DNA of 64,000 bases from Pseudomonadota bacterium (lineage in GTDB: Bacteria; UBA10199; 2-02-FULL-44-16; DYJF01), in contig JBDRBB010000008.1 in assembly GCA_043823065.1 (NCBI GenBank), positions 93,643-157,642 of the forward strand, written 5' to 3'. The notes beneath the pieces are model-generated. The model ran no database searches. It was not told the origin of the DNA and was given only the letters and a program-made list of their open reading frames with translations. Positions 4,903 through 48,782 of the stretch are shown piece by piece (positions within the stretch are counted from its first letter, which is position 1; each line of letters begins with the position of its first letter). A program made the position numbers and the translations under genes.

Positions 4903-4933
4903 TCCCCCTTTGTTGGTTTTGATAGGTTATATT
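4903..4933. repeat. 31-bp direct repeat, copy 1 (reverse complement AATATAACCTATCAAAACCAACAAAGGGGGA)
   Basis: Identical to 6883..6913. Contains the histidine-kinase stop codon and the SD for the downstream gene. Confidence 0.6.
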
Positions 4934-30920: not shown

Positions 30921-30924
30921 AATT

Positions 30925-32439: not shown

Positions 32440-33521
32440 TTGTTATTCCCGCGGAAAAACCAGACGGACCAAAATTGGACAGTTGGTGCATCAAAACGCT
32501 ACACCTGTTAGCAACTGAGTCGGTGCAAAAGCCCTATTTTACGCACTTTTTATTTTGGCACGAGGTTTGCTTTATATTTTAGCATGCCCTACTTACCTAG
32601 ATACTTTATTATCTGCGATGACTCCTACTTCCATGTGACTTGGCAATGCCACAACCAAGATTGGCTTCTAAAATGGGATTGGGCCAAGGAAATCTATTAT
32701 AATCTCCTGCGTAAATATAAAGATAAGTATGGAGTAGAAATCTATGCTTATAACTTTATGGATAATCACCCGCACCTTGCTGGTCACTTAAGATCTAAAG
32801 ATGAATTTTCTGCCTTTTTTCGCCTAGTTAATGGTTTATTTGCCAAAGCTGTTAACAAACGCCTTAACAGAAAAGGTCAGGTCATTATGGATAGATTCAA
32901 ATCTCCTAGAATTGAATCTGATAATCATTTGATAAATGTCATGACTTATATTGATCTAAATCAGCAACGAGTAGGCAAAGTAGATCATCCAAAGCAAAAT
33001 ACATGGTCATCTTATAGGTACTATGCATATGGCCAAAAAGATTCTCTGATTACCCCTTCACCTTCATATTTACTATTAGGAAGAACACCAACAGAGAGGC
33101 AAAATGAATATAGGAGATTAGTTGAGGGATTAATTGGAAATGACAAAGAAATAAATATATCTAAAACCTATTTCATAGGAAACCCAGATTGGGTAATTGC
33201 CAGATACAAAGAGTATAGAATTTTGTGGAAGACTGTCTATATCAAGCAAGGCCTATCCAATGCTAATTCTCCGCCAGGATAGCAAAAAAAGCAAGCAAGC
33301 GTGCAGTTTAATTTGAGAAATTAAGGATTTGATTGTAGAGCTGTATCCAAATTTAGCCAAATTCAAAAAAAATACCAAAATACAAATCGACAAGCGAAAA
33401 TTTAGTTTTGCAAGAGAGGTTTGCAAGTTTCAGATATTTGTAAATTGCCAATCAAATACAAAGTTGAGCAACTTTTATTCAAAAACTAATCAATAAGTAA
33501 AAATTGGTCCGTCTGAGTTTC
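32440..33521 (+). mobile_element. IS200-like / RAYT-like element: HuH transposase gene flanked by 12-bp inverted repeats, with a REP half-site at the left end
   Basis: Left end has TGTTATTCCCGCGG, a REP-like half hairpin. Inverted repeats are cagacggaccaa (32461-32472) and ttggtccgtctg (33505-33516). Confidence 0.4.
32584..33282 (+). CDS. HuH Y1 transposase-like protein (IS200/Transposase_17 fold; REP-associated tyrosine transposase-like)
   Basis: HuH motif MDNHPHLAGHL. YIDLNQQRV (similar to the YIxxNPV motif) and a Tyr-rich region SSYRYYAY. 232 aa. Confidence 0.55.
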   Translation: MPYLPRYFIICDDSYFHVTWQCHNQDWLLKWDWAKEIYYNLLRKYKDKYGVEIYAYNFMDNHPHLAGHLRSKDEFSAFFRLVNGLFAKAVNKRLNRKGQVIMDRFKSPRIESDNHLINVMTYIDLNQQRVGKVDHPKQNTWSSYRYYAYGQKDSLITPSPSYLLLGRTPTERQNEYRRLVEGLIGNDKEINISKTYFIGNPDWVIARYKEYRILWKTVYIKQGLSNANSPPG

Positions 33522-33648: not shown

Positions 33649-34140
33649 TTATGACTTCATGTTTACGTACTGAAGCGGGATTTTATAGTCTTTGGAATTC
33701 AGGGTTTGAATAACCTTCTGAAGATCATCTATTTTTTTGCCAGTAACGCGTACCTGTTCATCCTGAATTGCAGCCTGAACCTTTAGGTTTAAATCTTTGA
33801 TTGTTTTCACAAGCTCGCGGGCAATATCCTTGGATATTCCCTCATTGATTTTAATGGTTCTTTTTAGCAGCCCTTGCGAGGTTGGTTCGATTTTTTTGAA
33901 TTCCAGGCACCTTGGATCTACTTTTCTTCTTACGCAATTCGCGCGAATCATTTCTTCAAGTAACTTCATCTTCATCTCGTCAGAGGTGGTAATCTGCAGA
34001 GACTTCTCTTTTTTATCCAGATTTATAGATGTTTTCGAATTCTTAAAATCATATCTGGTTGTTACTTCGCGAGATGTATTATTAACCACGTTGTCCATTT
34101 CAGCTAGATCAACTTTATTTACAATATCAAATGACGGCAT
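33649..34140 (-). CDS. yajQ: YajQ-family nucleotide (c-di-GMP)-binding protein, UPF0234
   Basis: N-terminus MPSFDIVNKVDLAEMDNVVNNTSREVTTRYDFKNS matches the YajQ pattern. 163 aa. Confidence 0.85.
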   Translation of the reverse strand: MPSFDIVNKVDLAEMDNVVNNTSREVTTRYDFKNSKTSINLDKKEKSLQITTSDEMKMKLLEEMIRANCVRRKVDPRCLEFKKIEPTSQGLLKRTIKINEGISKDIARELVKTIKDLNLKVQAAIQDEQVRVTGKKIDDLQKVIQTLNSKDYKIPLQYVNMKS

Positions 34141-34295
34141 ATTAGCTCCTTTTTTGTTAAACCTTTTATCAAACCTTGTCTTAACTAACTCATCTATGCC
34201 TTTTTTGGCCAGAAAAAAACGATTTTAGGATATTAAGCAAATTGACAAATATTTCAGTTTATAGGCGTATTTCTGTGGATTGAAGGGAGGGGTCT

Positions 34296-34772
34296 ATGCC
34301 ATTTGTTCAGGTATACCAAGGCTTGCGGTCTAATGGAGTAACTGCTGCTGAGATGAACCAACTTACCCAGGCTGTGGCAGAAGCAGAAGGAATTATCAGA
34401 AATGAAAATGGAGAAGTGATTAACGCTACTGCAGATACTTTAGATCTGTTTATGGCCATAAACAGAGATATAAGATCTTTTGCTTATAACCGTCCAGAAT
34501 TTGAAGAACAAGCCCTTGGTAATTTTCAAAATTTTTTTTCAGGGGTAGATCAATTTCTACAACATAGATGCCAGGCCATTGGCAGCCAGCATTGGCAGCA
34601 TGCGGCTGGTTTAACCTTTGCTGGCGGAATTAGTGTTAGCATAGGAGCCGTTCTGCTCTTGCCTGGCTGGCTAAAGTTAATAGCTATAATTCCTGGAGTA
34701 GTTACTATTGGCGCGGGTCTGTATCATCAGCATGTGCATTATAATATTTTGCCAGAATATTGCCGGTATTGA
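34296..34772 (+). CDS. Hypothetical protein with a C-terminal TM hairpin
   Basis: ORF with a plausible start. No recognised motifs. Confidence 0.35.
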   Translation: MPFVQVYQGLRSNGVTAAEMNQLTQAVAEAEGIIRNENGEVINATADTLDLFMAINRDIRSFAYNRPEFEEQALGNFQNFFSGVDQFLQHRCQAIGSQHWQHAAGLTFAGGISVSIGAVLLLPGWLKLIAIIPGVVTIGAGLYHQHVHYNILPEYCRY

Positions 34773-34773
34773 T

Positions 34774-37287
34774 TTAAAAATATAAAATCAATTCCAATAT
34801 TTCATTATCAGCAACTTTGATGTTGATCCATTTTTTGAGCAGCACGCTTGCTTCAGGATCAACATAGCCAGCTTCCAAATAATAATCTCCTGGTTCTATT
34901 TCATAAATTTGCCAATCATCACCGGTTTCGCCAAGGATAAGCTCACGATCAGAACCATATTCAAATACCTTAAATTTACAATTAATAATGATATTATTTG
35001 AACCTCGACCAATGATTTTGAGCTTGCCAGTGGTAAAAATGCTTTCTTGGCTAATCAATTTGCCGTTTTTTATTTCAATGTCTTTTAACCAATTGGTGGT
35101 TTCAATCTTATCTTTGGTTTCTGCATTTATTGCCTTGGCGTTATAAAACCCTTGAGGAAGTTCAAATACCACCCAATCGCTTGATGCGTTTGCTGTGCCA
35201 AAGGGTTCATCCAGGCCTGCCCGATAAATCATAAATTCTGTTTCAATTGGTTGTTCTTTGGAATTAATGCCGCGCACACGCAAAGTGCCATAACTAAACT
35301 GAGCTACCTTTTCCACCGGTTTGGTGGCATCAATGCGCACATTGGGAATTAATGTTGTTGGTTTGGGCGTAGTTAAAATATTTTTTGAAGCCAGGATTTC
35401 GTATGTGTCTGGTGGAACAGGTACTGTAATGGTTTTGTCTGTTGCCACAAATTTTACTTTAGCAATAGATTCGGCTTTGGGCATCAGGCGAATATCAAAC
35501 TCAGCATCAGTTAATTTGCCTTCTGTATCTACGGCAGACAAGGTTAACAACCCCATTTCAAATGAAGCTAAGACTTCTGTGATTTCTGAAGCTTTCACAG
35601 ATACAGCATTGGCTTTGGAGCGCGGACTAATAATCATTTGAGGATCCTGACCAATAAAGACAATATCGTAATTTCCAGGAGCTACATTAACGGTGCCGCC
35701 GGATTTGGTTAAGGCGCCGCTAACATAAATCTGGTCTGGTTTTTCTGTTTTATAGATTTGATAGATAAACGGTATTTCTGTTTTTTGGGAAGTGATTCCT
35801 TCTAGTTTTAAAGTGCCTTCTTGAAATAAATATTTAACCAAGGTGCTTTCGCCTGTTTTAATGTCCACTCCAGATTCGGTTAAACGAATTCTTTCTGGAA
35901 TTGCCCCTTCTTGTTCAGAAGTGATGTCATATTGTCCTGGAGGTAAATAAATTTGTTGGGGGTGATCAGTTATTCTGGCTTCAGCAATAATTTCTGGTTG
36001 GCCTTTTTTGCGAATTTCAAAACGGGCCGGGCTGGGGTTGCCTGTAGCATCTATGGCAGCCAAGGTTATAGCGCCTAAGTCAAAATTTATTTTTTGTTCA
36101 ACTTTAGTTTTTTCTAAAATTTCTACACCTTTAATGATTTTAGATGGTTTTTTAAATTCAGGTGAAGCTGTGTATTCCACCATAATATCGTAAGTTCCAG
36201 GAGCCAAGCTTAACAGCTTGGTGCCAAAGCTGGTTTCAGTTTTAACCACTTCATTGGTCTGGCTCTTGTAAACAGTTAGGGTAACAGGAATGGGTGTGGC
36301 GCCAATAACTGTATTTAAGCGCAAATTATAAGGCAGCTTAGAGCTTACTGCTTCATCCAAAGATTTTCTGAGTTCTTCCTCATTGCGAGCTAAATAGAAT
36401 TTGCCATCAGAATTTTTGGCAATGCAGCTGAGTTTTTCTTGATCTGCGCTACTAATATCAAATCCAATCACTTGAATTGAAGTTCTAGGGTTTTGGGTGT
36501 GAATGGTTTGAGCTATCTGGCAAGGATCAGCTTGGCAAGTGTCAGAGCCATCAGTTATTAGCACAATGATTTGGTCAACGTCAGTCATAGCAGGAAAATC
36601 ATTGCTAGCAGCTTCTAGGCTCGCAGCTATTGGGCTTTCCCCCTGAGCGGTCAAAGGCAGAACAACTTCTTTGATTTTATCTAAATTTGGCTGGCTCACT
36701 GGATATAGTTGTCGCATATCTGCACAATCGCGATCATTTAATGATGTTTGCGAGCCAAAGGTTCTAATGCCTACATTACGCGGAAACTCAGTATCTTTTA
36801 AGGATAACATTACTTCAAACAAGGCCTTTTTTTGCAGGTCCAGTTTACTCTGAGTTGTGATGCCATAAATTGCACTTTGGCTGCCAGATGCATCTAAAAT
36901 AATATTGATGTTGGTTTTGGCATCCACCAGCTTAGGTGCAAAAGGCACTTCAGGGAATTGTTTTTTGCCAACTTCTTCAATAACCGGGGTGGGTATGTCA
37001 GCAGCGCCCAGGTTGGCTAGGGTTTCTGGCTCGGTTGGCGCTGCTTTTTGCTCCGTCTGAGTAGGTTCTGTTTGCTCCGTCTGAGTAGGTTCTACAGGTT
37101 CAGGAGCTGGTTCTATGGTCTTGGGACCTGGTAGCTCAATCTTCTTGCTTTGAGTTGTGCCAGATTGGGCAGGTTTTTGTTTTTCTTTGTTTTTACAGCT
37201 TGTTAAGCTACCCAGACTAAAACAAATAGCTAGGCAGATTACAAAAATAAGATAGTTTAATTTTCGCATAATTTGAATATTTACCAT
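34774..37287 (-). CDS. Large secreted lipoprotein with a von Willebrand factor A domain and repeated beta-sandwich domains
   Basis: Lipobox LTSCKNK. Pro/Thr/Glu linker with a tandem 24-nt repeat (TEPTQTEQ x2). VWA MIDAS-like motifs (ILDASGS, LITDGSDTC). Confidence 0.7.
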   Translation of the reverse strand: MVNIQIMRKLNYLIFVICLAICFSLGSLTSCKNKEKQKPAQSGTTQSKKIELPGPKTIEPAPEPVEPTQTEQTEPTQTEQKAAPTEPETLANLGAADIPTPVIEEVGKKQFPEVPFAPKLVDAKTNINIILDASGSQSAIYGITTQSKLDLQKKALFEVMLSLKDTEFPRNVGIRTFGSQTSLNDRDCADMRQLYPVSQPNLDKIKEVVLPLTAQGESPIAASLEAASNDFPAMTDVDQIIVLITDGSDTCQADPCQIAQTIHTQNPRTSIQVIGFDISSADQEKLSCIAKNSDGKFYLARNEEELRKSLDEAVSSKLPYNLRLNTVIGATPIPVTLTVYKSQTNEVVKTETSFGTKLLSLAPGTYDIMVEYTASPEFKKPSKIIKGVEILEKTKVEQKINFDLGAITLAAIDATGNPSPARFEIRKKGQPEIIAEARITDHPQQIYLPPGQYDITSEQEGAIPERIRLTESGVDIKTGESTLVKYLFQEGTLKLEGITSQKTEIPFIYQIYKTEKPDQIYVSGALTKSGGTVNVAPGNYDIVFIGQDPQMIISPRSKANAVSVKASEITEVLASFEMGLLTLSAVDTEGKLTDAEFDIRLMPKAESIAKVKFVATDKTITVPVPPDTYEILASKNILTTPKPTTLIPNVRIDATKPVEKVAQFSYGTLRVRGINSKEQPIETEFMIYRAGLDEPFGTANASSDWVVFELPQGFYNAKAINAETKDKIETTNWLKDIEIKNGKLISQESIFTTGKLKIIGRGSNNIIINCKFKVFEYGSDRELILGETGDDWQIYEIEPGDYYLEAGYVDPEASVLLKKWINIKVADNEILELILYF

Positions 37288-37396
37288 AAGTTAAAAAATT
37301 TGAAAATGAGTAAAAGCAAAAGAAAAACTGCTTTCATTTTGAGAAAAAAAAAGGTATTGTTCAGCTAATATCGTCAAAAATCCTATAAAAACCTTT

Positions 37397-38578
37397 ATGT
37401 CTATAAAAAATATTAAGAAAATTAAGCAAAAGAGAGTTAAGAAAACCCCAGCGTCAAGAAAACTGCAAGTCCCTTGTCAAAAAACCCTACTAGCAAAAAT
37501 TAAAACCTTAGAAAATTTGGTAAAGATTATTGAACGCGGCAAACGTCAGTGGGAAGCAACCTTTGATGCAATTGCTTCACCAGTTATGATTGTTGGCAAA
37601 GATTATAAAATAGAGCGGGCAAATATTTTTTTGGCAAATTTAATTGGGGCGGAGATAAAAAAGGTTGTTAATAGGAAGTGTTATCAGGTTTTTGCTGGAC
37701 GAGAAGAAATCTGCGTGGGCTGCCCGGTAAAAGAAGCTGTGGCCATTTATCGACCTTGTTCAAATATGCTTAATAATAAAATTGCTCGAAAAGATTTTGA
37801 AGCTCATGCTTTTCCCTATCTAAATAGGGAGGAAGTATCTGAAGCAGTGGTTATGTATTATCGGGATGTTACCCAAGAAAATTACTTACATCAGGAGTTA
37901 ATCCAAAATGAAAAAATGGCAGCCATTGGTCTTATTTCTGGTGGTATTGCCCATGAAATTAACAATCCTTTAGCAGTAATTTTGGTTTCAGCCCAATATT
38001 TAGTAGAAAATAATCGGCACAATGAGGCTCTTTTAAGTGATTTGAAAAAAATAGAAACAGCAGCCATGCAATGCAAAAGCGTGGTGCGAGATTTGCTTGA
38101 TTTTGCGCGTATTTCCAAAGCAACAGATAAATTGTTGATGGATATTAATTTGGTAATTGAAAAGATGATACCCTTTATTAAAGCTGATTTGGCTTTAAGA
38201 AATATTGAGCTTGTTTTGAAATTGGGTTCAAGTTTGCCCAACTTAAACGGCAGGCAAGACCGCATTCAGCAAGTACTTCTAAATCTTTTTACCAATGCTT
38301 GCCATGCTATGTCCCAAGGAGGAATTTTAACCATTGCCTCTGCCACCAACAATAAAAAAGAGATTTTAGTAACTGTAAGTGACACAGGCCAGGGCATGGA
38401 CGAGGAACAATTAAACAGATTGTTTGAGCCGTTCTATACCACCAAACAAGGCGATGAAGGCACAGGTTTGGGTTTGTCAATTTCCAAACAGATCGTGCAA
38501 GAACATGGTGGCAAGATTGAGGTTCAAAGCAAAAAAAATAAAGGAACTACTTTTAAGCTTGTATTTCCTGGGTGTTAA
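37397..38578 (+). CDS. Cytoplasmic PAS sensor histidine kinase
   Basis: PAS region with CVGCPV. H-box IAHEINNPLAVI. G-boxes SDTGQGMD and GTGLGLSI. Confidence 0.85.
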   Translation: MSIKNIKKIKQKRVKKTPASRKLQVPCQKTLLAKIKTLENLVKIIERGKRQWEATFDAIASPVMIVGKDYKIERANIFLANLIGAEIKKVVNRKCYQVFAGREEICVGCPVKEAVAIYRPCSNMLNNKIARKDFEAHAFPYLNREEVSEAVVMYYRDVTQENYLHQELIQNEKMAAIGLISGGIAHEINNPLAVILVSAQYLVENNRHNEALLSDLKKIETAAMQCKSVVRDLLDFARISKATDKLLMDINLVIEKMIPFIKADLALRNIELVLKLGSSLPNLNGRQDRIQQVLLNLFTNACHAMSQGGILTIASATNNKKEILVTVSDTGQGMDEEQLNRLFEPFYTTKQGDEGTGLGLSISKQIVQEHGGKIEVQSKKNKGTTFKLVFPGC

Positions 38579-38594
38579 GTAAGCGGGGAGGATT

Positions 38595-39977
38595 ATGCAG
38601 CATATTTTAATTGTCGATGATGAACCAGGTATCCGTTCAACCTTGCAAAAATATTTAAGCAACAAAAACTATAATGTTTCTATAGCTGGAAGTTGTGAAG
38701 AGGCTTTTAAAATTTTAGAAGAAGAGCCAGTGCAAGTTGCTTTGGTGGATTTGGTTATGCCTAAAATGGACGGCATTCAATTGATTCACAAGATGAAGCA
38801 GATTCAGCCATCCTTGGTGCCGATTGTAATCACTGGTTTTGGCACTATTACTTCAGCAATTCAGGCCATGAAAGCCGGCGCTTTTCATTATATTACTAAG
38901 CCTTTTGAGCTAGACGATATTTCCCTAATTGTTAATGCAGCTTTGGAACATTACAACCTAAAAGAAGAGAATATTTCTTTACGCAAGCAACTTAAGACAG
39001 AATATAAATTTAAAAATATTGTTGGCAAAAGTGAACCAATGCAGGCGGTTTTTGATTTGGTGGATAAAGTTGCCACAACTGATTCCACAATTTTGATTTT
39101 AGGAGAAAGTGGTACTGGTAAAGAGCTGGTGGCCAGGGCCCTGCATTACAACAGTCGGCGCGCTGAAAAAGCCTTGGTAACCGTGAACTGTGCGGCCATT
39201 CCAGAAGGTCTTTTAGAAACAGAACTTTTTGGGCATGTTAAGGGAGCTTATACTGGTGCTATTTCTACTGCACCGGGCCGTTTTGATAATGCTGATCAGG
39301 GAACAATTTTTTTAGATGAAATTGGTGATATGAGTTTTAAGTTGCAAGTCAAGTTATTGCGTGTCTTGCAGGAACAATCATTTGAGCCAGTTGGTTCAGC
39401 CAAAACTCATAATGTTGATGTGCGTGTAATTGCCGCTACCAATCATGATTTGGAAAAAGCGGTTAAAGAAAAACGTTTTCGGGAAGATCTTTATTATCGA
39501 TTAAATGTAATTCCCATTCATATTCCACCGCTGCGTGAACGCAAGGATGACATACCTTTGCTGGCTAATCATTTTATTGAAAAATTTAATCGAGAAGGCG
39601 AATGCGCCATAGACGGCATTGATGATACAGCTTTGGCTATTTTAATGGATTATGACTGGCCAGGCAATGTGCGCGAACTGGAAAACACCATTGAGCGAGT
39701 TGCGGTGTTAAAAAGAAAAGGACAAATTACCCCGACTGATTTACCGCAAAAAATTGAGGCCTGGCAAGGTACAGCTCAAACAAACCAGAAAAAAGTTAAA
39801 AAAATTAATTTAGATGAGAATATCTCTTTTAGAGAGTTAGTTGCTGATTATGAAACCAATTTAATCAAGCAAGCTTTAGAAAAAGCAGGTTGGAACAAAA
39901 ATAAAGCAGCTAATTTATTGGGGCTAAATCGTACTACTTTGGTGGAGAAACTTAAAAAATTAAAGATCAATAAATGA
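38595..39977 (+). CDS. Sigma-54-dependent response regulator (REC plus AAA+ sigma-54 interaction plus Fis-type HTH), NtrC family
   Basis: REC with Asp in ALVDLVMPKMDG. GESGTGKE. GAYTGA (the GAFTGA motif). C-terminal HTH. Confidence 0.9.
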   Translation: MQHILIVDDEPGIRSTLQKYLSNKNYNVSIAGSCEEAFKILEEEPVQVALVDLVMPKMDGIQLIHKMKQIQPSLVPIVITGFGTITSAIQAMKAGAFHYITKPFELDDISLIVNAALEHYNLKEENISLRKQLKTEYKFKNIVGKSEPMQAVFDLVDKVATTDSTILILGESGTGKELVARALHYNSRRAEKALVTVNCAAIPEGLLETELFGHVKGAYTGAISTAPGRFDNADQGTIFLDEIGDMSFKLQVKLLRVLQEQSFEPVGSAKTHNVDVRVIAATNHDLEKAVKEKRFREDLYYRLNVIPIHIPPLRERKDDIPLLANHFIEKFNREGECAIDGIDDTALAILMDYDWPGNVRELENTIERVAVLKRKGQITPTDLPQKIEAWQGTAQTNQKKVKKINLDENISFRELVADYETNLIKQALEKAGWNKNKAANLLGLNRTTLVEKLKKLKINK

Positions 39978-41419
39978 TTAAAGAAACAGACCTATTAATA
40001 ATTGATAATGATAGCGTTCAAGCTCATCTCTTAGAGGGGTTGGCTGAAGATAAGCGCTGGTCCTATGTGCATGCCAAAACAGGTGAAGAAGCCATCCGTC
40101 TTTTAAATCAGCAGCTATTTAAATTAGTGATTGTTGATGTGAAATTACCTGGGTTTAGCGGTTTGCAAGTTCTGGAATATATCAAGCTTAATCGAATTTT
40201 TGCTGAAGTAATTATGCTCGCAGATCCAGAGAGCATGGAGGTTGCGGTTCAGGGAATTAAAAAAGGCGCCTATGGTTATCTTACCAAACCCTTGCTTGAT
40301 TTAAGCAAGGTGCAAATAACTGTGGAAAAGGCCTTTGAGCATTATGGCTTAAATGCCCAGGTTCGGGATTTAAAAAGAGAAAAATTAGATCGCATTTCTT
40401 ATGAAGGTATTATTGGTCGTAGTAAAAAAATCCAGGAAATCTTTAATACTATCGACAGCGTTGCCGCTACTAATTCCACCATCTTAATTACCGGAGAAAG
40501 CGGTACTGGCAAGGAAATGGTGGCCAAGGCCATTCACAGCAGATCGAATCGCAAAAATAAAAAATTTGTGGTTATTAATTGTGCGGCTATTCCAGAACAA
40601 CTTATGGAGTCAGAGTTGTTTGGTCATAAGCGGGGTTCTTTTACCGGAGCTATTGCTGATAAAAAAGGTCTTTTTGAAGAAGCAAATGGCGGCACTGTTT
40701 TTTTAGATGAGATTGGCGAAGTATCTCCGGTTATTCAAGTTAAGCTCTTGCGAACTATTCAAGAAGGAGAGGTTAAGCCAGTTGGTTCAGGTGAAACTTC
40801 TCAGGTAGATGTGCGCATAATTTCAGCCACGAATCAAGATTTGGTGGAGTTAGTAAAACAAGGTCTTTTTAGAGAAGATCTTTATTATCGCCTAAATGTA
40901 ATCACCCTGCATATGCCATCACTCAGAGAAAGAATGGAAGATATCCCCTTGCTAACTTATCATTTCTTGGAAAAATATAGCCAAAGAGTGGGCAGAATTG
41001 TGAGCAAAATTTCCATTGATGCTTTGCAAGCCCTGCAAAACCATGAATGGATTGGTAATGTTAGAGAATTGGAAAACGTAATTGAACGGGCCGTGGTTTT
41101 GAGTTCAGATGAAACACTTTCTATTTCTGATTTGCCGCCCCGGGTTTTGGGAGATGCTTTTTATCTTTATAAAGAAGATGATCTTGATTTAAGTAAATAT
41201 TCCTACAGGGAAGCTAAAGAGAGGGCCTTGGTCAATTTTAATCGATCCTATTTGCGTAACTTGCTCAAACAAACTTCTGGCAATATTTCCTTTGCCGCCC
41301 AGAAAGCGCATATGGATCGCAGTAATTTTAAAAAATTGATTAAAAAGTATGGAGTGGATCCACGAGAAATTGTTTCGCCAGCAAGGGAATGGTCATTGAA
41401 GCCTGGCGGATCAAAATAA
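39974..41419 (+). CDS. Sigma-54-dependent response regulator, second paralogue
   Basis: REC with Asp in VIVDVKLPGFSG. GESGTGKE. GSFTGA. 4-nt overlap with the upstream gene. Confidence 0.9.
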   Translation: MIKETDLLIIDNDSVQAHLLEGLAEDKRWSYVHAKTGEEAIRLLNQQLFKLVIVDVKLPGFSGLQVLEYIKLNRIFAEVIMLADPESMEVAVQGIKKGAYGYLTKPLLDLSKVQITVEKAFEHYGLNAQVRDLKREKLDRISYEGIIGRSKKIQEIFNTIDSVAATNSTILITGESGTGKEMVAKAIHSRSNRKNKKFVVINCAAIPEQLMESELFGHKRGSFTGAIADKKGLFEEANGGTVFLDEIGEVSPVIQVKLLRTIQEGEVKPVGSGETSQVDVRIISATNQDLVELVKQGLFREDLYYRLNVITLHMPSLRERMEDIPLLTYHFLEKYSQRVGRIVSKISIDALQALQNHEWIGNVRELENVIERAVVLSSDETLSISDLPPRVLGDAFYLYKEDDLDLSKYSYREAKERALVNFNRSYLRNLLKQTSGNISFAAQKAHMDRSNFKKLIKKYGVDPREIVSPAREWSLKPGGSK

Positions 41420-41431
41420 GGGAGGGGTTTC

Positions 41432-42805
41432 ATGAATAACGCAGTACTAATTGTCCATGAATCAGAACCAGTCATTATTGAAAAAACATTGGCAGATAAT
41501 GATCTTCAATTAATTCGCACGGATGTTAAGGCTTTAGAGGGAAGATTGTATCATGAGGCGCCAGAGGTGGTAATTTTCTATAGTGAAAAAGAAGATGCCA
41601 ACCATGCCCTGCAGGTTTTAAAAACTGTTAAGAGTTTTGATGATAATTTGCCGGTAGTGGTTATTGCCAAGCAAACTGGTTTAGCTGAAGTTGTAAACAT
41701 TATGAAAGCCGGGGCTTATGATTTTTTTCCCCTGCCTTTGGATAAAACCAAGTTCAATAATTCGGTTAATAATTCCATAAGACTATATAATCTTACTAAA
41801 CGCGTTTTTTTATTAGAAAACCAAATGGGCTTAAGGGAAGGTTTTGATGATATTATTGGAACTAGTCCAGTGATGCAGGATATTTATCGTACCATTGAAA
41901 TTGTGGCCAAAAGCAATGCTACAGTGCTGGTTTTGGGCGAGAGCGGCAGTGGCAAAGAATTGGTAGCCAAGGCCATTCATCGTCATTCTCCGCGTGTGGA
42001 CAAGGTTTTTATGGATATTAATTGCGGAGCTATTCCTTCTGAGCTGTTGGAAAATGAAATGTTTGGCCATGAAAAAGGCGCCTATACTGGAGCAGATCGC
42101 CGCTATATCGGCAGTTTCGAGCGGGCCAGTGGTGGCACCATTTTTCTAGATGAAATAAGTGAAATGAGCCCGAATTTGCAGGTTAAGCTGCTGCGGTTTT
42201 TACAAGAGCGAAATTTTACGCGCGTGGGATCAAGCGAACCAATTAATGTGGATGTGAGAATTGTGGCAGCTACCAATCGAGATTTGGCAAAATGCGTGAA
42301 AGAAGGCGTTTTTCGCGAAGATCTATATTACCGGCTAAACGTGGTGCCTATTTCAATTCCTAGCCTGCGCGATCGGAGGGAAGATATTCCTTTACTAGCC
42401 AAATACTTTTTGCAAAAACTTTCTGCTAAGAACGAACGGATTTTTTTAGATTTTGCGCCCCAAGCAATGGAAGCGCTAATATCCTATGATTGGCCTGGAA
42501 ATGTGCGCGAACTGGAAAACACCATTGAGCGAGTAGTGGTTTTGAACAATGATAGTAAAGTAAAGCTCAGCCACTTACCTTTGGTAATTAGAGAAAACTC
42601 AGAAAGTAAGCTAGAAGATAGACCTAAAGTTGAGCCAACCTTTGTTGAACAACAAAAAATTGTTCCTCTGGAACTGGTGGAAAGATATGCTATTGAAGCT
42701 GCCCTACGAAAGTGTTATGGAAATGTTGCTGAAGCATCAAACAAACTTAAAATAGGCCAGGCAACATTGTATAGAAAGATAAAGCAATATGGATTAAGAA
42801 CTTAG
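41432..42805 (+). CDS. Sigma-54 enhancer-binding protein with a degenerate (pseudo-)receiver domain
   Basis: GESGSGKE and GAYTGA present. The N-terminal REC-like domain has EVVIFYSEKED at the position where the phospho-acceptor Asp is expected. Confidence 0.8.
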   Translation: MNNAVLIVHESEPVIIEKTLADNDLQLIRTDVKALEGRLYHEAPEVVIFYSEKEDANHALQVLKTVKSFDDNLPVVVIAKQTGLAEVVNIMKAGAYDFFPLPLDKTKFNNSVNNSIRLYNLTKRVFLLENQMGLREGFDDIIGTSPVMQDIYRTIEIVAKSNATVLVLGESGSGKELVAKAIHRHSPRVDKVFMDINCGAIPSELLENEMFGHEKGAYTGADRRYIGSFERASGGTIFLDEISEMSPNLQVKLLRFLQERNFTRVGSSEPINVDVRIVAATNRDLAKCVKEGVFREDLYYRLNVVPISIPSLRDRREDIPLLAKYFLQKLSAKNERIFLDFAPQAMEALISYDWPGNVRELENTIERVVVLNNDSKVKLSHLPLVIRENSESKLEDRPKVEPTFVEQQKIVPLELVERYAIEAALRKCYGNVAEASNKLKIGQATLYRKIKQYGLRT

Positions 42806-42813
42806 GAGGTTTA

Positions 42814-43173
42814 ATGAATATCAATGTAGAACAACAAGGTAATGTTTCAATTTTGCACTGCGGAGGAAGTTTGGATGCAGAATCTGTGGCTGGATTTAAA
42901 AAAATCGCCTATGATTTGGTGGAAAAAGGATCGGTAAATATTGTGATAGATTGTGAAGCAATTAATTTTGTGGATAGCATGGGCTTGGGCGCTTTAATTT
43001 CTCTGTTGCGTAGGGCTCGTTCCAGAAAAGGAGATGTAAAAGTATCTGCTCTAAGTGAAGATGTTAGAACAGTTTTTGAAATCACTAGACTGCATCGTCT
43101 TTTTGATATTTGCGCTGATGCCAGTGCTGCATGTCACCGTTTTGATAAGGCTGCCATACAAAAAAACAATTAA
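42814..43173 (+). CDS. STAS-domain anti-sigma-factor antagonist (SpoIIAA/RsbV-like)
   Basis: Conserved phosphorylatable Ser context FVDSMGLGALI. 119 aa. Confidence 0.8.
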   Translation: MNINVEQQGNVSILHCGGSLDAESVAGFKKIAYDLVEKGSVNIVIDCEAINFVDSMGLGALISLLRRARSRKGDVKVSALSEDVRTVFEITRLHRLFDICADASAACHRFDKAAIQKNN

Positions 43174-43180
43174 TTGATTC

Positions 43181-43591
43181 ATGGATTTTTCAGTTAAAAT
43201 AAGTATTTTAAGTGATACAAAATATTTGGCCCCCTTAAGGGGGCTTGTTCATGCTGTGTCAAAAGCGGTTGAACGCCATGATATTCCAGAACAAGCTTGG
43301 AAGGCCTGCGCTCTTGGTTTGATTGAAGCAGTTGATAATGCGATTTTTCATGCGCATCAAAACAAGGAGAACGAGCCTATTGACGTAAAGCTCACTGTGG
43401 GTGATAGTGCCATCGAAATTTCAATATTGGATCAAGGTTTGGGATTTAATACAGCTTTTGACCCAGACCAAGCGCCAGATTTAATGTCTACAAGTGGTCG
43501 TGGTCTTTATTTAATGCACGCCTTAATGAGTAAAGTGGAAAGGCGGCAAAGCGAGCAAGGACATGAAGTTGTGTTAACCTATAATCTTTGA
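43181..43591 (+). CDS. Anti-sigma regulatory factor / serine protein kinase (RsbW/SpoIIAB-like HATPase_c)
   Basis: N-box EAVDNAIFHAH. G1 DQGLGF. G2 GRGLYLM. Confidence 0.7.
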   Translation: MDFSVKISILSDTKYLAPLRGLVHAVSKAVERHDIPEQAWKACALGLIEAVDNAIFHAHQNKENEPIDVKLTVGDSAIEISILDQGLGFNTAFDPDQAPDLMSTSGRGLYLMHALMSKVERRQSEQGHEVVLTYNL

Positions 43592-43637
43592 AGAATAAGC
43601 TCAATTTGAGGAGAGTAAGCTTTGAGGTTGAAGCAAT

Positions 43638-44981
43638 ATGATGAGAAAAAGCAGGGAGAGTATTAGCAAGGAAGTGGCTATGGCGGAAAAATTGCATAAA
43701 AAATTAAAAGCCCAGAGCGCTACCAGAAAAACCGATGAATCTATGGAAAGCATTTATTCCTTAAGTAAGGCCATTGCCCAGGCTTCAGAGATAAAAGAGA
43801 TTTATGAATTAATTTTAGATGAAGTGGTGAGAATTTTTGGCGTGGAAAAAGCATCTATCATGGTTTATGACCCGGATTTAGATGCCTTAAAGATTGCAGC
43901 TGCTAGAGGATTAGATATAGACATTAAAAACAAGGCTTTTGTTAGAGTTGGAGAAGGCATTAGCGGTAAGGTTTTTAAAAGCAGCGAACCTTTGCTAATT
44001 CAAGATATTCAGGCTTCTGGAATGGATAAAGGCAGGGATCGCTATAAAACAAAATCTCTCATGTCTGCGCCAGTCACTTGTTTTCCCATGAAAGTTGGCA
44101 AGCAGACCCTGGGCGTTATCAATGTAACTGATCGCGCTAGTGGCAAATCTTTTGATGCTACTGACCTAAAAGTTCTGACCACTTTATCCAACCAGGTGGC
44201 GTCATATTTGCGAATAGTGCAATTGTCCAGAGAAGTTGCTTCAACTGAGCAGCTCAAACAACAGTTGGAAATTGCCCGCCAAATTCAATATCGCTTATTG
44301 CCAGTTAACCCCCCAAATTTAGAGGGAATTGAAGCTGCTGGTAGAGTTGTTACAGCTGATCGGGTTGGTGGCGATTATTATGATTTTTTTATTTCACACA
44401 GTAAGCGTCCTTCATTTGCTATTGCTGATGTGTCTGGGCATTCCATTGGCGCGGCTCTAACTATGGCTGCTTTTCGTTCAGCAATTAGGGCTCAAATGGA
44501 TTCTGAGTTTACAACTTCAATTTTGGTTCAGCGAATCAATCAGATTCTTTTTGAAGATTTATTTCAAGCAGAGCAATTTATCTCCATGGCTTTTTTGAAA
44601 TATATGAAGGCCAGGCAGCTTATCCAGTTTACCAATGCTGGTCATCCGCCGCCAATTATTTGGCGGAGTGGCTTGCGTAAGTTCGAAGAATTATATACAG
44701 ATGATCCCTTGTTGGGAATTGAACCGATTAGCATCTACCATGAAAAACAAGTTGTGGTTTCCAAGGGAGATGTGGTGCTGTTATATACTGATGGCTTAAC
44801 TGAAGCAGCAAATACTAAAGGAGAGCGTTTTGGAAAAGCCCGGCTGCTTAATTTCCTAGAGCCTATCATGGAAAAGAGCGCTGAGGAAATTGTTGGAGAA
44901 ATTGTTGAACAAGCAGCTAGTTTTGCTGATCCAGCGCCGATTAAAGACGATATTACAGCTATGGTTTTAAAGATTACGTAG
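43638..44981 (+). CDS. GAF-domain PP2C (SpoIIE-type) serine phosphatase, RsbU-like
   Basis: PP2C motifs GGDYYDF, ADVSGHSIGAAL and LYTDGLTEA. N-terminal GAF. Confidence 0.85.
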   Translation: MMRKSRESISKEVAMAEKLHKKLKAQSATRKTDESMESIYSLSKAIAQASEIKEIYELILDEVVRIFGVEKASIMVYDPDLDALKIAAARGLDIDIKNKAFVRVGEGISGKVFKSSEPLLIQDIQASGMDKGRDRYKTKSLMSAPVTCFPMKVGKQTLGVINVTDRASGKSFDATDLKVLTTLSNQVASYLRIVQLSREVASTEQLKQQLEIARQIQYRLLPVNPPNLEGIEAAGRVVTADRVGGDYYDFFISHSKRPSFAIADVSGHSIGAALTMAAFRSAIRAQMDSEFTTSILVQRINQILFEDLFQAEQFISMAFLKYMKARQLIQFTNAGHPPPIIWRSGLRKFEELYTDDPLLGIEPISIYHEKQVVVSKGDVVLLYTDGLTEAANTKGERFGKARLLNFLEPIMEKSAEEIVGEIVEQAASFADPAPIKDDITAMVLKIT

Positions 44982-44986
44982 AGACT

Positions 44987-46186
44987 ATGGAATATCAAGC
45001 AACCCTAAAATATCTGGAGTCATTAATACCCGTTAATTTTAAACAAGATTTAGTTGCTTTGAGCGAAGCTTGTCATTTGTTTGACAATCCCAGCTTGGCT
45101 TTCCCTACTATTCATATTGCTGGTACTAATGGCAAAGGTTCTACGGCAACTTTTTTGACTTCAATTTTAATGCATAGTGGTTACAAAGTTGGTCTCTACA
45201 CTTCTCCGCATTTAATAGATGTTAGGGAGCGTATTCAGGTTAATCGCCAACCAATTTCCGAACAAGATTTTGTCAAACTAACAGAAGAAATTCGCAAAGT
45301 TCTACCAAATGAGCGGTATTTAACTTATTTTGAGTTTTTAACTTTAATGTCTTTTCTATATTTTAAACAGCAAAAAGTTGATATAGCAGTGTTTGAAACT
45401 GGTTTGGGTGGTCGTCTTGACGCCACAAATGTGATAAAGCCTCAAGTGGCAATTATTACCTCTATTTCTTTTGATCATAGACATCATTTAGGGGCTAGCT
45501 TGGCAGATATTGCCAAAGAAAAATGCGGAATTATCAAACGTGGTGTGCCCACAGTAGTTGCCGAGCAGCAAAATGAAGTCATGGATGTAGTGCGCAGGTG
45601 GTGTGATGATCAAGGTTCTCCTTTGTGTGTGGCCCATCCAGCAGATATTACTCAGCCGTTAGGTTTGCTAGGTAAACATCAAAAACAAAATGCCTCTTGT
45701 GCAGTAGAGGCAGCGCAGCTTTTGTCAGCCATGTTTAAGATTAAAAAAGTAGATGAAGCTTTGCTAAATACACATTGGAGCGGTCGTCTGGAACAAGTTA
45801 ATGCTGCTCCTAAAGTTTTGGTAGATGGGGCCCATAATTTAGCTGGAGCACAAGTGTTGGCTGAATATATTTCTGAAACAATTCCTCGCGATAAGGTAGT
45901 GTTGATGATTGGAATTATGCAGGATAAAGATATCAAAGGTATTTGCCGAGTTTTGGCGCCAACGGCAAAAGAGATAATTTGTGTGCGCGCGCCAATAGAT
46001 CGCAGCGCTTCGCCAAAAGATATCGCTGCTGCAGCCAGATCTTATGGGGCTGAAGTGCATGTTGAAGAAGAAGTTGCTCAGGCCCTGGCTACCTGGCTTA
46101 AAAAATTAAAAAAGCAAGATATTCTAATTATCTCTGGTTCTTTAATGATTGTGGCTGAAGCCAAGAAATATTTCGACAAAGCTTAA
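44987..46186 (+). CDS. folC: Folylpolyglutamate synthase / dihydrofolate synthase
   Basis: P-loop IHIAGTNGKGST. Mur-ligase-like architecture. Confidence 0.9.
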   Translation: MEYQATLKYLESLIPVNFKQDLVALSEACHLFDNPSLAFPTIHIAGTNGKGSTATFLTSILMHSGYKVGLYTSPHLIDVRERIQVNRQPISEQDFVKLTEEIRKVLPNERYLTYFEFLTLMSFLYFKQQKVDIAVFETGLGGRLDATNVIKPQVAIITSISFDHRHHLGASLADIAKEKCGIIKRGVPTVVAEQQNEVMDVVRRWCDDQGSPLCVAHPADITQPLGLLGKHQKQNASCAVEAAQLLSAMFKIKKVDEALLNTHWSGRLEQVNAAPKVLVDGAHNLAGAQVLAEYISETIPRDKVVLMIGIMQDKDIKGICRVLAPTAKEIICVRAPIDRSASPKDIAAAARSYGAEVHVEEEVAQALATWLKKLKKQDILIISGSLMIVAEAKKYFDKA

Positions 46187-47226
46187 ACAAGCAACATACA
46201 ATCCCCATAACTAAAAAGCCGGTATTTTTGTTTAATAGCTTCCTGGTAGGCGTTAAGTACAAACTCTTTGCCGGCAAAAGCAGAAACCAGCATGATTAAA
46301 GTTGATTTAGGTTGATGAAAATTAGTGAGCACTGCATCTACAATCTGAAATTCATAGCCTGGAGTAATAAAAAGATGAGTTTCTTGCTCACCTGCTTGCA
46401 CCAAGTTATTTTTAGCGCTGGCTTCTAAGGCACGTACAGTGGTGGTGCCAATAGCCACAATTTTTTTTCCTTGGTTTTTTGCGTTATTAACTGTTTCTGC
46501 AGTTTTTGCTGAAATAAAAATTTTTTCACCATGCATCTTATGATCTTTAATGTTTTCCTCACGCACTGGAGCAAAAGTATCCATCCCAACATGTAGTGTT
46601 ACGTATTCAATTAAAACACCCTTATCCTGGATTTTTTGTAAAAGCTCTGTGGAAAAGTGCAGGCCAGCAGTAGGCGCTGCTGCAGAGCCAGGAGTTTTGG
46701 CATATACAGTTTGGTAACGCTGGCGATCTAAATCAGTATAATCCTGAAACTCTTTTTTCCTAATATAAGGAGGCAGGGGTGGAACACCGCAACGTTCAAT
46801 TGCTCTTTGACAGTGGCCAGCTGGAAATTCTACAACTAAGAAATCTTGATCTCTACCTTTAACAACTGCTTGGGCGGAAATGCCAAAAAAGAATTTATCT
46901 CCTTTGTGATAATTGCGCACACGCTTTGTTAAGCAGCGCCAGGTTTGAACTGTATGTTCCTCTCCTTTTGTTTTTTCCACCAAAAGCAGCTCTAAAGATC
47001 TGCCACCAGATCTCTGGCCAAAAATTCGCCAAGCCATAACCTGAGAATTGTTAAGTATTAAGACATCACCTTTATTCAAATACTTAATGATGTCAGTTAA
47101 TTGAGCATGTTCATAGGTCTGAGCTTGCCGGTTGAGAACCATCATTTTGGAGGCTGTTCGCTCTGCTAAAGGTTGCTGGGCAACCAACTCTTCAGGAAAT
47201 TTATAATTGAAATCACTAAGTTTCAT
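46183..47226 (-). CDS. queA: S-adenosylmethionine:tRNA ribosyltransferase-isomerase
   Basis: N-terminus MKLSDFNYKFPEELVAQQPLAERTASKMMVL is typical of QueA. 347 aa. Confidence 0.92.
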   Translation of the reverse strand: MKLSDFNYKFPEELVAQQPLAERTASKMMVLNRQAQTYEHAQLTDIIKYLNKGDVLILNNSQVMAWRIFGQRSGGRSLELLLVEKTKGEEHTVQTWRCLTKRVRNYHKGDKFFFGISAQAVVKGRDQDFLVVEFPAGHCQRAIERCGVPPLPPYIRKKEFQDYTDLDRQRYQTVYAKTPGSAAAPTAGLHFSTELLQKIQDKGVLIEYVTLHVGMDTFAPVREENIKDHKMHGEKIFISAKTAETVNNAKNQGKKIVAIGTTTVRALEASAKNNLVQAGEQETHLFITPGYEFQIVDAVLTNFHQPKSTLIMLVSAFAGKEFVLNAYQEAIKQKYRLFSYGDCMLLV

Positions 47227-47289
47227 AAGTGGGCCAGAGATAGCTTAGGCCTAGGTAGTTAGTCAAGAAGCAACGGAAGTGTTGTTCAT

Positions 47290-47358
47290 GGTTCGACAAG
47301 CTCACCACGAACGGCTAACTATTTGATTTTCCGTTCACCCTGAGCTGGTCGAAGGGTT
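47290..47358. other. Long imperfect hairpin (~25-bp arms, 16-nt loop) followed by a T-run, in the queA/nfeD divergent region
   Basis: Arms ggttcgacaagctcaccacgaacgg and ccgttcaccctgagctggtcgaagg, about 18/25 complementary. Then gcttgctttttt. Confidence 0.3.
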
Positions 47359-47408
47359 AAACAACAATTCCGCTTGCTTTTTTGTGGTTAGTGGCGAAAC
47401 TGCAGGTT

Positions 47409-48782
47409 ATGAAACTAAGAAAATATAAAAAATATTTTTATCTCATCCCTTTTTGTTTAGCTTTTTTCTCTTTTCTAATAGGTGCTAGTTCCCAGTCAGA
47501 ACAAAAAGTTTATATAGCCACTCTTGATGACCAAATTATCAATCCAGTTATGGTGGATTATATTGATAAGGCAATTGCCGAGGCTAAAGCTAACCAAGCC
47601 CAGTGTTTGATCTTAAAGCTAGACACACCAGGTGGTCTTTTAACCTCAACTAGAAAAATCGTGAAATCTATTATGAACTCAGAAGTGCCAGTGGTTGTTT
47701 ATGTTGCTCCCCAAGGCGCGCGCGCTGGATCAGCAGGTGTTTTTATAACTTTAGCGGCAAATATTGCTGCCATGGCGCCTTCTACTAATATTGGCGCTGC
47801 TCATCCAGTTAATTTGCAAGAAGATAAGGGTAGTAAAGATAATTTGGAAGATTTGTTGCAAAGATTAGTAGATAAAAAGCCAGACCAGAAACAAGATCAG
47901 GAATCAGCTAGTCCAATGCAAGATAAGATATTAAATGACACCACAGCTTGGGTTAAAGGTATCGCTCAAACCAGAGGAAGAAATGTAAATTGGGCGATAA
48001 AAGCAGTAACTGAAAGTGTTTCGGTTGAAGAACAAGAAGCCTTAAAACTTAATATTATTAATTTTATTGCTAAGGATGTTGCGGATTTGCTAACCAAAAT
48101 AGATGGCCAGAAAATAACTATTGGTGATCAAAATAAAATTTTAAACACCAAAAATGCAGCTCAAATTCAAATTGAACCAGGTTTGCGTGTCAAAATTTTA
48201 GCTACACTGGCTCATCCAAATATTGCTTATATATTATTGATGTTAGGTTTTTATGGTTTGTTGTTTGAATTTACCAATCCTGGAATTGGTTTTTCCGGAA
48301 TTGCTGGAGTAATTTGTTTGGTACTGGCTTTTTTTGGATTACAAATTTTGCCAACTAATTACGCAGGTATTGTATTAATTGCCCTGGCTATTATTCTTTT
48401 TATTGTTGAGATTAAAGTGATTAGTTATGGGCTTTTAACCCTGGGTGGATTGGTCTCTTTTTTAGTTGGATCCTTAATTTTGTTTGATACTCCGCATAAG
48501 TTTATGCAGGTTTCCTTGCCTTTGGTGGGTGGTTTTGCTGCTGCAACATTTATCGTTGCTGCTTTTTTAGCCTTTATTGCCATTAGATCCCATCAACGTA
48601 AAAGTAAAATTGGTTTGGAAGGTTTAATAGGAGAAGTAGCTGAGGTAAGCAAGGCCAGGGGCAAAAAAGGCAAAGTATTTGTGCATGGTGAAATATGGGA
48701 TGTTATTTCTGAAAATAACCTTGAAGTAGGTAAGCCAGTTGAGGTAATAGGTAAGCAAGCTACAAAATTAATTGTGAAATAG
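47409..48782 (+). CDS. NfeD-family membrane-bound serine protease (ClpP-class N-domain, TM region, C-terminal OB-fold)
   Basis: Start trimmed to MKLRKYKK.... ClpP-like GGxxT region. Four or five TM helices. C-terminal beta domain with GEIWDV. Confidence 0.75.
   Translation: MKLRKYKKYFYLIPFCLAFFSFLIGASSQSEQKVYIATLDDQIINPVMVDYIDKAIAEAKANQAQCLILKLDTPGGLLTSTRKIVKSIMNSEVPVVVYVAPQGARAGSAGVFITLAANIAAMAPSTNIGAAHPVNLQEDKGSKDNLEDLLQRLVDKKPDQKQDQESASPMQDKILNDTTAWVKGIAQTRGRNVNWAIKAVTESVSVEEQEALKLNIINFIAKDVADLLTKIDGQKITIGDQNKILNTKNAAQIQIEPGLRVKILATLAHPNIAYILLMLGFYGLLFEFTNPGIGFSGIAGVICLVLAFFGLQILPTNYAGIVLIALAIILFIVEIKVISYGLLTLGGLVSFLVGSLILFDTPHKFMQVSLPLVGGFAAATFIVAAFLAFIAIRSHQRKSKIGLEGLIGEVAEVSKARGKKGKVFVHGEIWDVISENNLEVGKPVEVIGKQATKLIVK

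Follow-up and report, generated by a model that had tools for sequence, protein, structure and literature searches.

We examined a 64-kb stretch of DNA, hereafter the window, from contig JBDRBB010000008.1 of an uncultured bacterium labelled Pseudomonadota (assembly GCA_043823065.1). Positions 37397-44981 of the window hold seven genes, all on one strand, which encode a histidine kinase, three paralogous sigma-54 activators of the enhancer-binding protein type (EBP1, EBP2, and EBP3), a single-domain STAS protein, a GHKL serine kinase resembling RsbW and SpoIIAB, and a SpoIIE-family phosphatase that joins a GAF domain to a PP2C domain (table 1). Our findings are best explained by a model where these genes form one signalling operon, ancestral to an uncultured lineage, that joins two sensory branches on sigma-54-dependent transcription. 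Every part belongs to a known family, and the combination is undescribed in the literature searched.

Gene Content of the Locus

Pfam assigns domains to all seven products, and the gene calls, obtained from a listing of open reading frames (ORFs) together with Pfam and NCBIfam scans, match exactly the coordinates of a first reading of the sequence (the original prediction); its account of seven co-directional genes, and of the domains that they encode, is upheld by Pfam. From the histidine kinase gene through the phosphatase gene, the successive intergenic gaps are 16, -4, 12, 8, 7, and 46 nucleotides (nt). The packing had been described as gaps of at most 16 nt or overlaps, and this holds for five junctions; the last and widest, between the RsbW-like gene and the phosphatase gene, exceeds it. 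A co-directional folC gene starts 5 nt past the phosphatase gene and is the eighth member of a conserved block, the order of which is kinase, EBP1, EBP2, EBP3, STAS, RsbW-like, GAF-PP2C, and folC.

Three Sigma-54 Activators and a Pseudo-Receiver

The three activators share pairwise identities of 40-41% and score almost equally as sigma-54 activators (Sigma54_activat, 243, 244, and 240 bits for EBP1, EBP2, and EBP3, respectively; Pfam cut-off 20.2). All three retain Walker A (GESGTGKE or GESGSGKE) and Walker B (FLDEI) motifs, and their sigma-54 contact loops read GAYTGA, GSFTGA, and GAYTGA, in the same order; complete ATPase motifs are found in the three paralogues across nearly all genomes. 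In one orthologous locus (L017), the acidic pair and the Lys of the EBP2 receiver are gone, as are the GAFTGA loop and Walker B (DE to DD), and the helix-turn-helix is retained. Pfam HTH_8 misses the C-terminus of EBP2, which aligns to the Fis helix-turn-helix and contains a conserved GN-S-A-MDRSNFKKL segment; an EBP2 devoid of a DNA-binding domain was ruled out by this alignment. The recognition helices differ among the three paralogues and are each strongly conserved within a paralogue, which suggests, at the level of sequence, three separate DNA specificities.

Receivers were aligned against E. coli NtrC and CheY. The EBP1 receiver is canonical in all orthologues, with acidic pair, Asp, Thr, and Lys in place, and EBP1 is the only activator of the window with a fully canonical receiver. 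By the same alignment the EBP2 receiver of the window is partly degenerate: the acidic DDD reads DND and the Thr is replaced by Ala, with Asp and Lys kept. In the EBP3 receiver of the window, H/E stands for the acidic DD, Y/S/E occupies the end of β3, and Ala and Leu replace Thr and Lys, respectively. This condition extends to the 51 EBP3 orthologues. The conserved Lys is present in none of them (0/51), with L, Y, F, M, or I standing in its place; Ala predominates at the Thr position and His-Asp at the acidic pair. An Asp occurs among the three residues around the end of β3 in 5 of the 51, all five lacking the Lys, and Glu is the most frequent residue just past β3 (31/51).

An AlphaFold model of EBP3 built on the 51-orthologue alignment (pLDDT 85.5) shows a regular (βα)5 receiver fold. 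The receiver-fold domain spans residues 1-131 and is followed by intact AAA+ (with its GAYTGA loop) and HTH_8 domains; in the model a single unbroken helix, residues 105-131, constitutes α5 and the linker, as in NtrC1. Foldseek aligned the model along its entire length with NtrX, inactive NtrC1 (1ny5), FleQ-FleN, LuxO, NtrC4, and VpsR. The loss of the phospho-acceptor Asp claimed for the third activator is thus confirmed by the NtrC/CheY alignment, the 51 orthologues, and the predicted fold, and EBP3 is, as judged from alignment and model, an ancestral pseudo-receiver protein of the NtrC1/DctD architectural type. In activators of this type, the receiver-linker unit holds the ATPase off. Because EBP3 has kept the receiver-linker unit and lost the phosphorylation site, it would need an input other than a phosphoryl group. 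A single kinase feeding all three activators, as originally pictured, is therefore unlikely, given that EBP3 cannot accept the phosphoryl group and that the EBP2 receiver of the window, with its DND and its Thr to Ala replacement, is partly degenerate.

Conservation along EBP3 is uneven, being low at residues 1-60 (0.34-0.47) and highest in the linker LTKRVFLLE (residues 121-129; 0.83), a conserved and EBP3-specific segment; the DDNLP loop (residues 70-74) is likewise EBP3-specific and nearly invariant. Overall, the C-terminal half of the receiver (α4-β5-α5 and linker) is conserved and the active-site half drifts. This distribution of constraint would suit a model, which we consider distinctly unlikely, where EBP3 and the degenerate EBP2 are controlled by pairing with EBP1 through the α4-β5-α5 face and the linker, with the switch functionally separate. 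The three tandem paralogues do occur together in all genomes, the L017 EBP2 has been retained despite the loss of its GAFTGA loop and Walker B, as fits a non-catalytic subunit, and HrpR and HrpS provide a strictly co-operative pair (PMC3105312). Nonetheless, hetero-oligomers of this kind are difficult to reconcile with complete ATPase motifs in all three activators of nearly all genomes, and with a distinct recognition helix, strongly conserved in each paralogue, that speaks for separate DNA specificities.

By analogy, the nearest precedents for a pseudo-receiver activator under the control of a protein partner would be FleQ-FleN of Pseudomonas and FlbD-FliX of Caulobacter, in both of which the receiver-like domain of a sigma-54 activator lacks the phosphorylation residues. 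The candidate partner here differs, being of the STAS/RsbW type rather than a MinD-like ATPase or FliX. The N-terminal 135 amino acids (aa) of EBP3 gave no match to the Pfam FleQ domain at E up to 1, and the likeness to FleQ in structure 8p53 is at fold level only; also in contrast to FleQ-FleN, no MinD/ParA-like gene occurs in the block and no flagellar genes lie nearby. Partner proteins controlling pseudo-receiver or receiver-less activators are known, namely in FleQ-FleN and HrpS-HrpV-HrpG (PMC3105312). The latter, from Pseudomonas syringae, may be the closest case of partner-switch logic on a sigma-54 activator: HrpR and HrpS are tandem paralogous activators, and the anti-activator is neutralised by a third protein. 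On the other hand, HrpR and HrpS are devoid of an N-terminal domain, the mechanism involves no phosphorylation, and neither HrpV nor HrpG is related to RsbW or STAS proteins.

A Complete Partner Switch without a Sigma Factor

The STAS protein (TIGR00377, 78 bits; cut-off 53) carries a phosphorylatable Ser in a DSMGLG motif, invariant in 19 sequences, that aligns with S58 of SpoIIAA and S56 of RsbV. The RsbW-like kinase (HATPase_c_2, 80 bits) displays N, G1, and G2 boxes (EAVDNAIFHA, DQGLGF, and GRGL), and its nearest solved structure is RsbW (6m36). In the phosphatase (SpoIIE, 154 bits), the metal-binding motifs GGDYYD, DVSGHS, YTDG, and DDIT are invariant, and the GAF domain most resembles those of NifA, PtsP, and Nlh1. 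Solved relatives of the switch proteins comprise RsbW, SpoIIAB, SpoIIAA, and GAF domains of the NifA-like Nlh1 type. Judged by its catalytic and phospho-acceptor motifs, the switch is catalytically complete. The STAS protein is its best-conserved member, while the RsbW-like kinase, with 30-50% identity among orthologues, is the fastest-evolving protein of the block; the L017 sequence is among the most divergent (32% identity).

Pfam detected no Sigma70 or Sigma54 domain in any ORF of at least 120 aa within the window, which bears out the claim that no sigma factor accompanies the switch, and no sigma factor was found in the ~10 kb that flank the block on each side in ~20 Pfam-annotated orthologous loci. 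The three families are identical to those of the RsbV-RsbW-RsbU/sigma B and SpoIIAA-SpoIIAB-SpoIIE/sigma F switches of Bacillus, down to all catalytic and phospho-acceptor motifs. The differences lie in the lack of a sigma factor gene in the operon or the window, and in the order, which here runs STAS, kinase, phosphatase behind an activator gene. So textbook a set of RsbV-, RsbW-, and RsbU-type proteins, with every motif present, could still be a canonical anti-sigma module in which the RsbW-like protein sequesters an unlinked sigma-70-family factor, its place in the operon reflecting co-expression or hitch-hiking with folC. We regard this as unlikely. It is true that a housekeeping gene, folC, is as conserved in the block as the switch genes, so that adjacency alone does not prove coupling, and that the sigma factor search in this genome spans 64 kb. 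Yet canonical modules have an adjacent sigma factor gene, which is missing both from the window and from the flanks of the annotated loci, and the rapid evolution of the RsbW-like protein is unexpected if it must fit a conserved sigma factor; moreover, modules free of a sigma factor are already known (PMC8256260).

One of these, HsbR-HsbA of Pseudomonas aeruginosa, had been put forward in the original prediction as a parallel. The likeness holds insofar as both are switches with no sigma factor and with a STAS protein as output; it fails in the input, since in HsbR REC, PP2C, and kinase are fused and HptB supplies the input, and no such fusion, Hpt, or receiver input is found here. The Syp circuit, treated below, is the closer precedent.

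A Cytoplasmic Kinase with a Three-Cysteine PAS Domain

The PAS domain of the histidine kinase carries a C95-x10-C106-x2-C109-P motif, in keeping with the CxxC noticed originally, and the three Cys are kept in 13 orthologues. The best NCBIfam match of the kinase is AtoS, below the AtoS cut-off. No membrane segment is predicted, the peak 19-residue hydropathy being 1.29, and for want of a hydrophobic segment the kinase is most simply taken as a soluble, cytoplasmic protein. A c-type haem was ruled out as a reading of the Cys motif, which is CxxCP and not CxxCH in a cytoplasmic protein. The PAS domain of OrpR, which also contains three Cys, binds a [4Fe-4S] cluster (PMC8359166), and by this analogy the motif suggests redox or metal (Fe-S-like) sensing.

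Gene Order across Two Deep Clades

Orthologous loci were retrieved through EBP3 (3 loci), through the phosphatase (17 genomes, one per species), and through divergent STAS members (2 loci). A sample gathered mostly through switch genes is biased toward loci that contain the switch, and this was corrected by a scan anchored on EBP3, in which metagenomes were searched for a degenerate DNA pattern encoding the linker specific to EBP3. True EBP3 genes made up 18 of the 30 matches. In each of the 14 scan loci that extend downstream (14/14), the STAS gene lies directly 3' of EBP3, with kinase, phosphatase, and folC wherever the sequence continues; including the three look-ups, STAS adjoins EBP3 in 17 of 17 informative EBP3-anchored loci. 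The same is seen in every locus retrieved through the phosphatase or STAS. Overall, the eight-gene order is unchanged in ~35 loci, that is, in every locus long enough, across two deep clades. The original prediction had named a common order with a function already assigned as what would count against it: the order is common within the lineage, and no function is annotated for the block in any of the ~35 loci.

In the sister clade the block is identical in its eight genes, with STAS and phosphatase sequences 45-50% and 37-40% identical, respectively, to those of the main clade, and EBP3 likewise lacks the Lys. The flanks differ, with purM/purN upstream and coaE downstream. In the main clade they are variable: a VWA gene lies upstream in many loci, and downstream ALAD and polA are found in many and queA in the window. 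In both clades folC always closes the block, usually starting 1-60 nt past the phosphatase gene. One sister-clade locus (L027) presents the RsbW-like kinase and the GAF-PP2C phosphatase as a single 572-aa ORF in the order kinase-GAF-PP2C, on one automated-assembly contig where a frameshift artefact is possible. The block-bearing sources are all uncultured metagenome-assembled genomes, largely from groundwater or subsurface, under inconsistent NCBI labels (Deltaproteobacteria, Pseudomonadota, Bdellovibrio, and Myxococcales); their putative GTDB phylum is UBA10199. One metagenome-assembled genome that bears the Pseudomonadota label has a protein identical to EBP3.

The STAS proteins of the block form a discrete family. 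When 1.84 billion cluster representatives were searched exhaustively with HMMER, the family came down to a single 50%-identity representative (E 5e-49); the next match, at 6e-27, was weaker by 22 orders of magnitude. Outside the block, the closest STAS relative (43% identical) belongs to an exopolysaccharide locus with glycosyltransferases, Poly_export, and Wzy_C, where genes for a REC-SpoIIE (REC-PP2C) protein, a HATPase_c_2 protein, and a second STAS protein are present and neither a sigma factor nor an activator occurs nearby. Another outside relative sits on a short contig, where a receiver gene follows it.

By analogy, the Syp circuit of Vibrio fischeri (RscS/SypF, SypG, SypE, and SypA) appears to be the closest precedent for the overall logic of the block. 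There, both SypG, a sigma-54 activator, and the SypE/SypA switch, which has no sigma factor, are under the control of a sensor kinase; SypA is the output, and its target lies below transcription (PMC10120452, PMC8256260). Both systems have a STAS protein with a conserved phospho-Ser, and the L027 fusion follows the order of SypE, with GAF replacing the receiver domain. The systems differ in several respects. Syp has one activator, against three here, one of which is a pseudo-receiver protein; SypE is tripartite (kinase, REC, and PP2C), whereas the window encodes its kinase and its GAF-PP2C phosphatase in separate genes. In addition, since the phosphatase is gated by GAF and not by REC, it is not obvious how the histidine kinase could feed into the switch; polysaccharide genes are absent from the flanks of the block, and the lineage is unrelated.

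From this comparison follows a second model, possible though on the doubtful side: a Syp-like circuit of two branches, where kinase and activators drive a sigma-54 regulon and the switch, in parallel, controls that process post-transcriptionally, with unphosphorylated STAS acting on a target that is not an activator and EBP3 being no target of the switch. The polysaccharide locus of the nearest outside STAS protein, itself free of a sigma factor, is in its favor, as are the kinase, sensor, phosphatase order of the L027 fusion, shared with SypE, and the standing of the STAS protein as the best-conserved switch member, which fits an extra partner. However, polysaccharide or effector genes are not conserved beside the block, the flanks of which vary, EBP3 is left without an input, and the adjacency of switch and EBP3 in every genome over deep divergence goes unexplained.

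In full-text literature searches, no description was found of the block itself or of any partner switch linked with sigma-54 activators, and neither sigma-54 nor enhancer-binding proteins come up in a review devoted to single-domain STAS proteins.

Sigma-54 Promoters

The only perfect sigma-54 consensus of the window, TGGCACGAGGTTTGCT (TGGCACG-N4-TTGCT), lies 4.8 kb upstream of the operon, just 5' of a 232-aa IS200/Y1-transposase-like gene with an HUH motif (table 1). No convincing inverted repeat that could act as an upstream activator site was found before this promoter. In a related locus (L021), a perfect sigma-54 site, TGGCACGTCTATTGCT, again precedes a Y1-like gene, 24% identical to that of the window (E 4e-7). 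A Y1 transposase-like gene, driven by sigma-54 and to all appearances domesticated, thus recurs in the lineage. The perfect promoter of the window and similar ones in related loci suggest, as sequence matches, that the organism uses sigma-54; rpoN is not in the window.

Neither the window nor any of 16 loci has a sigma-54 site with up to one mismatch inside the block or immediately 5' of it, and most loci also lack a GG-N10-GC element in the 400 nt that precede the kinase gene. Autoregulation of the operon by sigma-54 was rejected on these grounds: with no site at the block, the operon is not visibly sigma-54-autoregulated and the targets would lie elsewhere. Scans of 34000-47500 for sigma-70 promoter and terminator consensus sequences gave no excess over shuffled sequence.

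Neighboring Genes and Repeats

Divergent from the kinase gene, and 109 nt apart, lies a gene for an 837-aa VWA-domain protein. A VWA homologue is found 5' of the operon in many main-clade loci and in none of the sister clade, and in some loci a large unannotated gene (452-1055 aa) intervenes between the VWA gene and the operon. Elsewhere in the window, a gene encoding an ODP-family di-iron protein of the metallo-β-lactamase fold is overlapped at its end by a second kinase gene (HisKA, HATPase_c), and the two together look like an ODP-kinase sensor pair. A stand-alone 140-aa protein has a C-terminal Fis-type HTH_8 as its only recognisable domain.

Intergenic tandem arrays are frequent, with units of 7-9 nt in 3-9 copies; a reverse-complement array often follows, giving a potential long imperfect hairpin. 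The unit sequence varies between sites and genomes. Several arrays fall within the kinase-EBP1 and EBP3-STAS spacers of orthologous operons. We take them to resemble the STRR heptamer repeats of cyanobacteria. The EBP3-STAS spacer of L002 contains two GC-rich hairpins, CCCCGCGCAGGCGGGG and TTCCCGCTTTCGCGGGAA, REP-like in appearance.

Table 1. Positions of the genes and other features named in the text; L plus a number denotes an orthologous or related locus, in its own coordinates.
Feature	Sequence	Position	Strand	Domains and remarks
Histidine kinase, 393 aa	Window	37397-38578	+	Pfam PAS_4 (weak), HisKA, HATPase_c
EBP1	Window	38595-39977	+	Pfam REC, Sigma54_activat, HTH_8
EBP2	Window	39974-41419	+	Pfam REC, Sigma54_activat; helix-turn-helix by alignment
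EBP3	Window	41432-42805	+	Pfam Sigma54_activat, HTH_8; receiver match 19 bits, cut-off 30.2
Single-domain STAS protein	Window	42814-43173	+	Pfam STAS
RsbW/SpoIIAB-like GHKL serine kinase	Window	43181-43591	+	Pfam HATPase_c_2
GAF-PP2C (SpoIIE-family) phosphatase	Window	43638-44981	+	Pfam GAF, SpoIIE
folC (dihydrofolate synthase / folylpolyglutamate synthase)	Window	44987-46186	+	TIGR01499 379 bits, cut-off 163
Second kinase	Window	4927-6114	-	HisKA, HATPase_c
ODP-family protein	Window	6096-6875	-	Di-iron metallo-β-lactamase fold
Sigma-54 consensus	Window	32556-32571
IS200/Y1-transposase-like gene	Window	32584-33282	+	HUH motif
VWA-domain protein	Window	34774-37287	-	VWA
Stand-alone 140-aa protein	Window	54763-55185	+	HTH_8
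Tandem arrays	Window	30924-31055, 55968-55995
Tandem arrays	L005	7049-7121, 11397-11469
Tandem arrays	L008	3426-3518, 9213-9247, 16428-16487
Tandem array	L011	9195-9219
Tandem array	L014	1614-1650
Tandem arrays	L016	3255-3358, 4624-4732, 9102-9252
EBP3-STAS spacer	L002	11383-11496		Two GC-rich hairpins
EBP2 part with DND and Thr to Ala	Window	39974-40350	+
EBP2 orthologue	L017	6253-7650
Sigma-54 site and Y1-like gene	L021	7021-7765	-
RsbW-like kinase and GAF-PP2C, one ORF	L027	10351-12069		Kinase-GAF-PP2C

Discussion

The view of the locus as system-like, advanced when it was first described, agrees with our findings: the locus behaves as a system. The kinase and EBP1 make up a complete two-component pair. 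We suggest that the locus comprises two branches. In the first, the cytoplasmic PAS kinase would phosphorylate EBP1, as well as EBP2 where the EBP2 receiver is intact. In the second, the GAF-regulated PP2C phosphatase and the RsbW-like kinase would set the phospho-state of the STAS protein, and the output of the switch, either unphosphorylated STAS or the free kinase, would bind EBP3 and control its assembly into an active ring. The switch is proposed as the input of EBP3 since it is the only co-conserved candidate, is adjacent, and is itself without an output. That the switch acts on EBP3, through one or the other of these proteins, an output already raised in the original prediction, we put forward tentatively, as quite possible but short of probable, on the basis of the invariant adjacency, an activator without input, and a switch without output. 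The broader notion that an RsbV/RsbW/PP2C switch has exchanged a sigma-70-family target for a sigma-54 activator, with the phospho-state of STAS, as set by a GAF-gated phosphatase, gating the assembly and firing of EBP3, is possible but rather doubtful.

Among 17 non-redundant loci, evolutionary distances of the STAS protein correlate (Spearman) with those of the phosphatase (0.90), the AAA+/HTH core of EBP3 (0.88), the RsbW-like kinase (0.76), and EBP2 (0.32-0.38). Hence, STAS tracks the EBP3 core nearly as well as it tracks the phosphatase and much better than EBP2, which is suggestive only.

Several points weigh against a switch acting on EBP3. The mirror-tree correlations are confounded by shared phylogeny and by a lineage-specific acceleration of EBP2, and a run with 10 genomes failed its positive controls, the STAS-PP2C control working at 17. 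The putative coupling of switch and EBP3 is argued from synteny and parsimony, and because folC is equally invariant in the block, hitch-hiking can keep genes adjacent in the absence of functional coupling. The fastest-evolving parts, namely the first half of the EBP3 receiver and the RsbW-like kinase, argue against a strongly constrained interface there. Furthermore, the nearest outside STAS relative resides in an exopolysaccharide locus without an activator, and SypA, the best-studied STAS protein among switches that have no sigma factor, exerts its effect below the level of transcription, on a target still unknown (PMC10120452). Finally, EBP3 could be constitutively active, or controlled as a hetero-oligomer by EBP1 or EBP2.

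Irrespective of how EBP3 is controlled, the block offers a clean, deeply conserved marker operon for a subsurface lineage of which little is known, and its activators compose a natural series of receiver decay, with EBP1 intact, EBP2 decaying in some genomes, and EBP3 long decayed. Partner switches without a sigma factor are widespread, and the targets of SypA, RbaV, and HmpV are still unknown (PMC8256260, PMC10120452). A switch lacking an output beside a sigma-54 activator lacking an input, in every genome examined, offers a concrete candidate pair that can be tested cheaply. If the proposed action of the switch on EBP3 is true, the locus would provide the first known case of enhancer-dependent transcription controlled by a phospho-serine partner switch, as well as a natural system that names a target for STAS proteins of switches with no sigma factor; it would thereby represent both a new class of partner-switch output and a new mode of control of enhancer-binding proteins.

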